Source of the DNA: Escherichia coli
GTDB taxonomy: Bacteria > Pseudomonadota > Gammaproteobacteria > Enterobacterales > Enterobacteriaceae
Assembly (NCBI RefSeq): GCF_024223415.1
Contig: NZ_CP100500.1
Length of the DNA stretch: 64,000 nt
Direction: 5' to 3' (one strand)
A program made the position numbers and the translations under genes. Shown one piece after another: positions 10,289 through 10,866 of this stretch. The first letter of the stretch is position 1; the number at the start of each line of letters is the position of its first letter. The notes below the pieces were generated by a model, which did no database searches, had not been told where the DNA came from, and saw only the letters and a list, made by a program, of their open reading frames with translations.

Positions 10289-10866
10289 ATGAGTGAAAAA
10301 AGCATTGTTCAGGAAGCGCGGGATATTCAGCTGGCAATGGAATTGATCACCCTGGCGCTCGTTTGCAGATGCTGGAAAGCGAAACACAGTTAAGTCGCGG
10401 ACGCCTGATAAAACTTTATAAAGAACTGCGCGGAAGCCCACCGCCGAAAGGCATGCTGCCATTCTCAACCGACTGGTTTATGACCTGGGAACAAAACGTT
10501 CATGCTTCGATGTTCTGTAATGCATGGCAGTTTTTACTGAAAACCGGTTTGTGTAATGGCGTCGATGCGGTGATCAAAGCCTACCGTTTATACCTTGAAC
10601 AGTGCCCACAAGCAGAAGAAGGACCACTGCTGGCATTAACTCGTGCCTGGACATTGGTGCGGTTTGTTGAAAGTGGATTACTGCAACTTTCCAGCTGCAA
10701 CTGCTGCGGCGGCAATTTTATTACCCACGCTCACCAGCCTGTTGGCAGCTTTGCCTGCAGCTTATGTCAACCGCCATCCCGGGCAGTAAAAAGACGTAAA
10801 CTTTCCCAGAATCCTGCCGATATTATCCCACAACTGCTGGATGAACAGAGAGTACAGGCTGTTTAA
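10289..10866 (+). pseudogene. flhC: flhC with a 1-bp deletion frameshift
   Basis: ATG at 10289 reads [22 protein letters not shown], then shifts ([12 protein letters not shown]) to a stop at 10391-10393. The rest of FlhC (..[14 protein letters not shown].. to RVQAV*) continues in another frame as ORF 10363..10866. The sequence is CTGGCGCT where the FlhC protein sequence (..ITLGARLQML..) requires CTGGGCGCT. Confidence 0.85.

Follow-up and report, generated by a model that had tools for sequence, protein, structure and literature searches.

Flagellar genes are expressed in a hierarchy in which FlhD4C2 turns on the class II operons, flhBAE and fliA among them, and in which sigma-28 in turn leads to class III. 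The flhC gene is thoroughly characterised and loss of motility through flhC or flhDC is well documented; RefSeq already has annotations of the exact allele considered below, in genomes of a different lineage. In Escherichia coli MG1655, selection for flhDC-null cells has been observed in nutrient-limited chemostats as well as in the mouse gut, with a growth advantage of these cells (PMC3116916). The mutants were mostly IS1-associated deletions that removed flhDC and genes downstream of it, and the laboratory strain concerned has a promoter activated by an IS. A natural counterpart is known from sorbitol-fermenting E. coli O157:H-, for which PMC6729007, citing Monday et al. 2004, describes a 12-bp in-frame deletion in flhC, with retention of the flagellin gene and a block of the later flagellar classes.

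The case most directly comparable to the present one is provided by STEC O177:H-. A 71-mer across the lesion, identical to that of our locus, is found in 5 of 5,426 complete E. coli genomes (5,368 of which have a match), namely SMN013SH2, SMN152SH1, SMN197SH3, 2014C-3011 and OkiPb01679, all belonging to this one lineage. The three SMN strains are STEC O177:H- (fliC-H25) that were nonmotile when isolated, and their genomes are PacBio assemblies corrected with Illumina reads. In the three records that were fetched (2014C-3011, SMN013SH2 and OkiPb01679), RefSeq annotates flhC as 'frameshifted' and cheA as having an 'internal stop'. In the five contigs of this lineage in our comparison, cheA is likewise interrupted by a premature stop, and gene callers give two products for it, of 578 and 73 aa. 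This stop looks like secondary decay of a silent regulon, and the non-motility of O177:H- is not attributable to flhC alone, since cheA is also broken there.

Here we analyse a stretch of 64,000 nucleotides of E. coli DNA, in the following referred to as the window, in which flhC is interrupted. The interruption is best explained, with a probability that we put at about 0.8 on the basis of sequence comparison, by a real, recent and spontaneous one-base deletion (GGG to GG, codon 23) inactivating the gene. The locus shares with the MG1655 mutants the operon that is hit and the loss of a master regulator, which proved beneficial there, but the lesion of the window is a point frameshift, and flhD is not preceded by an IS there. 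With O157:H- it shares a natural route to loss of motility via flhC, whereas the deletion of O157:H- is in frame, lies elsewhere in flhC and defines a pathogenic clone, the window having a frameshift.

An interrupted flhC frame

The operon position of flhC is retained in the window, flhD ending with a stop codon at 10284-10286, the ATG of flhC following at 10289 and motA beginning at 10993. The gene as a whole extends over 10289..10866 on the + strand and thus measures 578 nt against 579. Translation of the window from the ATG gives 22 native codons followed by 12 out-of-frame codons and a TAA at 10391-10393, in agreement with the frame break described in the initial annotation, and the uninterrupted frame of about 192 codons found in FlhC is accordingly broken after codon 22. 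What remains at the 5' end is a stub ORF of 34 codons (10289..10393, + strand), made up of FlhC residues 1-22 and 12 out-of-frame residues, which matches the FlhC model at positions 1-21 only, with 17 bits. The codons for A24-V192 are shifted to the next frame at 10357-10863 and are followed by the normal stop at 10864-10866, and this out-of-frame remnant (10357..10866, + strand) scores 241 bits with the NCBIfam FlhC equivalog over model positions 26-169, against a cut-off of 216, and hence falls within the FlhC family (NCBIfam NF009365; Pfam PF05280; PDB 2AVU). The remnant had originally been counted as 167 codons, but the actual number is 169, the lower figure being that of the ORF finder, whose entry for the remainder of flhC is 167 aa long and starts from the TTG at 10363. 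We can conclude that flhC of the window is a pseudogene of the FlhC family.

The wild type reads CCCTGGGCG at the lesion and the window CCCTGGCG; the local sequence is CCCTGGCGCTCG in the window and CCCTGGGCGCTCG in the intact genome ECONIH4. When the whole region is aligned to ECONIH4, there is a single one-base gap at 10353/10354, which leaves GG at 10354-10355 on the + strand in place of the wild-type GGG, in the codon for G23 and at the 3' edge of a Dcm site (CCTGG, 10351-10355). This gap bears out the initial proposal that one G of a GGG run is missing at 10354-10355. Adding one G to flhC of the window furthermore restores an ORF of 579 nt, the product of which equals FlhC of ECONIH4 wherever the two were compared; residues 23-192 encoded by the window are 100% identical to those of ECONIH4, and the ECONIH4 protein is itself 100% identical to the crystallised E. 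coli FlhC (PDB 2AVU chain E).

The flagellar neighbourhood

To check the genes around flhC, 35 annotated proteins of ECONIH4 served as tblastn queries for the window, and every gene tested was covered end to end except flhC and ftnA, the latter being cut by the window start. The gene with which the flhDC class I operon begins, flhD (9936..10286, + strand; 116 aa plus stop), is intact, with 116/116 residues and 100% identity to ECONIH4, and it scores 155 bits with the NCBIfam FlhD equivalog against a cut-off of 90. Downstream of flhC and likewise on the + strand, motA, motB, cheA and cheW (10993..15296) are full length with 295/295, 308/308, 654/654 and 167/167 residues and 99.7-100% identity to ECONIH4, as are tar, tap, cheR, cheB, cheY and cheZ (15441..21739, + strand), which are covered end to end with 99.5-100% identity, and flhB, flhA and flhE (21941..25552, + strand), with 382/382, 692/692 and 130/130 residues and 98.5-99.7% identity. 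The 14 other motility and chemotaxis genes are thus of full length, as first reported, with amino acid identities to ECONIH4 of 98.5-100% in the tblastn comparison. The broader assertion that the rest of the regulon is intact stands for flagellar region II and does not extend beyond it, since the flg and fli regions lie outside the window.

The intergenic and regulatory region between uspC and flhD (9158..9935, no strand assigned) is collinear with ECONIH4 and gap-free, and the alignment reveals neither an IS element nor an indel in it. It does contain a private G-to-C substitution at 9186, where the window has C on the + strand, 29 nt upstream of the start codon of uspC and 1.17 kb from the lesion in flhC. 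The base at this position is G in all 5,415 of the 5,415 complete E. coli genomes matching that stretch and in every relative that was fetched. The uspC gene has been linked to motility in the literature.

At its other end the window contains a lambdoid prophage (35920-64000) integrated at yecE, a DUF72 gene, and collinearity with ECONIH4, which carries a different insert at yecE, ends inside this gene at 36261. A tyrosine integrase gene on the minus strand (36672-37985) overlaps the end of the yecE ORF, and the prophage furthermore encodes a CI-like S24 repressor, a DnaB-type helicase, a phage-borne porin (50981-51988), a gpA-type terminase and a lambda-family portal. Its best match in complete genomes has 66% coverage and 94.7% identity.

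A real deletion or a sequencing error

The closest relative of the window that we found is an independent assembly, denoted L017 (run SRR31139555), which differs from the window at just 3 of 16,927 positions. These are 9186, the missing G, where L017 has GGG and encodes a FlhC of 192 aa, and 12692, where the deviating base is private to L017, so that the C at 9186 is the only other window-specific difference over 16.9 kb. The exact MotB variant of the window is rare, and L017 carries the same one. Among complete RefSeq E. coli genomes, none exceeds 99.5% identity to the window over positions 1-25000, and exact scans of GTDB representative genomes and of JGI metagenomes did not return the deletion junction, nor did an independent assembly of the same clone with the deletion turn up. 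Alignment to flhC of related strains, a check proposed in the initial annotation, gives GGG and an intact FlhC in both ECONIH4 and L017, and the flagellar genes are fully intact in L017 as well as in several less close contigs, some of which are human gut metagenome assemblies. A Shigella origin, which might be considered because the E. coli set contains nothing very close, is not supported in view of these intact genes. Since the near-identical L017 has GGG, the deletion must either postdate the split between L017 and the window or be an error in the window genome alone. If it is real it would be recent, given that L017 has GGG and an intact FlhC and that the 14 neighbouring genes are without decay.

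The second of these options, that the strain has GGG and that the consensus lost one G at a short G run by a methylated Dcm motif, is the less likely one, although a single consensus error would look just like a deletion that is private to the window genome and absent from its closest relative. The site is indeed a short G run adjoining a Dcm motif, and uncorrected long-read assemblies have been reported to yield deletions in G/C stretches; one paper describes an uncorrected PacBio assembly with 1,591 pseudogenes. Furthermore, in the visibly noisy contig L013, where 6 gaps occur over 12.5 kb, single bases are lost in a manner that suggests errors both in the same CCCTGGG motif and in the A7 run of flhC, and it should be mentioned that the CCCTGGG spot can give artefacts in poor assemblies, even if the one-base loss of L013 differs from that of the window.

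The surroundings of the lesion are however in poor agreement with such an origin. Over the 36,261 bases collinear with ECONIH4, an independent genome, the missing G of flhC is the only indel, as compared to 313 substitutions, and this stretch holds 1,762 homopolymer runs of at least 3 (174 of at least 5 and 12 of at least 7) and 101 Dcm (CCWGG) sites, none of which shows any other difference in length. Substitutions at Dcm sites are not enriched either, 4 being observed where 4.4 are expected. Platform errors occur in numbers and favour long runs, and an artefact would thus be recognized by many length discrepancies at homopolymers and Dcm motifs with a bias towards long runs, whereas we find a single one over 36 kb, and the 174 runs of at least 5 are free of them. 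No second indel occurs in these 36 kb although 1,761 further homopolymer runs and 100 further Dcm sites are present, and it would be coincidental for a lone error to strike the one gene whose loss is known to be adaptive. We consequently regard an artefact as unlikely. The same applies to a nanopore-type error at the Dcm motif in particular, as there is no excess at Dcm sites and the indel is the sole one among 101 of them. Between a recent loss of motility and a homopolymer error, the two explanations offered originally, the evidence favours the former, since the indel is the only one in 36 kb, a near-identical relative has GGG and the same allele has been verified elsewhere. For a genuine deletion, loss of one G by replication slippage in the short G run would be the most likely mutational mechanism.

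Other lesions at the 5' end of flhC

When the 5' end of flhC is broken, gene callers see a remnant of 165 aa (M28-V192), which is recorded in 761 blocks, the 34-aa stub being recorded in 227 blocks of public assemblies; among the records inspected, exact matches to either protein came from other lineages only. Lesions are frequent in flhC, and other contigs have them within the same 30 nt, namely a Q27 amber in three contigs, a +1 insertion, two other -1 deletions and an insertion of an IS3-family element at CTGGG. These natural null alleles of the flhC 5' end share their consequence with the allele of the window, that is the 165-aa remnant, but the lesions and the strain backgrounds are different.

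The Q27 amber (CAG-to-TAG, position 10366 of the window) occurs in contigs L007, L008 and L015, which are separated from the window by 66, 114 and 71 substitutions over 12.5 kb, respectively; if these three arose separately, this would be another recurrent flhC null allele. In GCA_964037755.1 (OZ038676.1), flhC is interrupted by the IS3-family element, which has ORFs of 108 and 295 aa, at the CTGGG that matches position 10354 of the window, and this genome has a further transposase gene between uspC and flhD. A further 14 complete genomes fall in the identity band of at least 99% for the 71-mer with partial coverage, and these may have other disruptions there or close by, for instance IS insertions or larger deletions.

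The notion that CCCTGGGC, a Dcm/Vsr site between a C run and a G run, is a true hotspot that makes and possibly reverts motility-null alleles in unrelated lineages stems from the observation that the same 7 nt are hit by the G deletion on two haplotypes, by a C deletion, by the IS3-family insertion and by a T deletion that is maybe assembly noise. Five of the nine lesion-carrying haplotypes in the ascertainable interval of 30 nt fall within those 7 nt, for which a rough binomial estimate by hand gives about 0.04, on a sample ascertained via the 165-aa remnant and for short runs that attract frameshifts anyway. Since only lesions between M17 and M28 give rise to the 165-aa remnant, the clustering is largely an ascertainment effect, and we find a true hotspot very doubtful.

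Restart, frameshifting and phase variation

Still less probable is the idea that flhC of the window works after all, whether by restart at M28, by -1 ribosomal frameshifting at CUG-G or by a reversible phase switch between GG and GGG. Termination-reinitiation is physically conceivable, since the ATG at 10369 sits 22 nt upstream of the stub stop, but neither this codon (M28) nor the TTG at 10363 is preceded by a Shine-Dalgarno sequence, the energy of the anti-SD duplex being -1.5 kcal/mol as compared to -3.9 to -7.8 for the real starts in the window that were tested. In addition, a product started at M28 is devoid of residues 6-9, on which both dimerisation of FlhC and DNA binding depend. The exact wild-type sequence would result from a -1 shift at L22, yet C-CCU-GGC is not a slippery heptamer of the X-XXY-YYZ type, as found in programmed -1 frameshifting. 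A phase-variable contingency locus might be suspected from the fact that the same G run is mutated in two lineages. Contingency tracts typically have at least 7 units of a homopolymer or tandem repeat, however, and a run of 3 (GGG in the wild type, GG in the window) is far below the known ones, nor is frequent variation of the tract seen, its length varying in one lineage only among the 5,368 matching complete genomes, 5 of which have the exact GG 71-mer. Furthermore, the non-motility upon isolation of the three O177:H- strains is that of strains with this very allele. In the absence of a Shine-Dalgarno sequence, of the N-terminal dimer interface, of a slippery site and of a long tract, we reject translational restart, programmed frameshifting and phase variation alike.

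Published mutagenesis has established that FlhD4C2 no longer binds DNA when the N-terminal FlhC-FlhC interface carries substitutions (I6D, V7D plus a glutamate), and that the basic FlhC residues R37, R39, K42 and K45 are needed for DNA binding. The stub contains none of these four residues and misses the whole C-terminal region. The premise of the initial annotation, that FlhC is indispensable, is in accord with this mutagenesis.

One allele in two lineages

Over 6 kb the window differs from the O177:H- haplotypes by 75 substitutions, 3-4 of which are located inside flhC, and at every flanking informative site it agrees with its own lineage, as represented by L017. The haplotypes being distinct and the flanks matching the lineage of the window, the same deletion appears to have arisen twice. 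Import of the allele from an O177:H-like donor via a very short recombination tract is the least credible of all the explanations, since the identity of the two haplotypes over 10232-10607 makes a patch of at most 376 bp conceivable, but one that would have left every informative flanking site as in L017 and come from a donor allele present in only 5 of 5,426 complete genomes, and one-base slippage is far more parsimonious than such a tract.

Returning to an independent deletion as the preferred reading, the window resembles O177:H- in having the same 71-mer and the same 34-aa stub, an allele that RefSeq calls 'frameshifted' and that goes with a lack of motility at isolation in the three SMN strains. 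The allele of O177:H- is old enough to have become fixed, being shared by isolates from both the USA and Japan, and is accompanied by the internal stop in cheA, whereas that of the window is private and has intact neighbours. The two consequently look like two ages of one allele, a fresh loss in the window and an older loss with a cheA nonsense mutation in O177:H-. What we have at hand is a loss-of-function mutation of an ordinary type, one that recurs independently and affects a gene whose loss is known to be selected for, and only its independent, fresh occurrence in the window strain is new.

Consequences for motility

With flhC frameshifted, the FlhD4C2 activator would not be formed, and the class II operons, including flhBAE and fliA, would be expected to stay off, leaving the cell without sigma-28. 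The class III operons motAB-cheAW and tar-tap-cheRBYZ would then be silent, and the cell would be aflagellate and non-swimming despite the intact structural genes in the window. The most likely reason for the persistence of such a mutation would be the growth or colonisation advantage of flhDC-null cells, be it in the gut, under nutrient limitation or during laboratory storage. The strain has probably become unable to swim only recently, through a mutation of a common and well-understood type.

Complete as the motility genes of the window look, an H-negative phenotype without flagella is predicted from the lesion, and this is of relevance to serotyping, to motility and colonisation experiments and to annotation, in which flhC ought to be given as a pseudogene. 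It would add one more independent case in which E. coli has lost motility by way of the master regulator and not through the structural genes.
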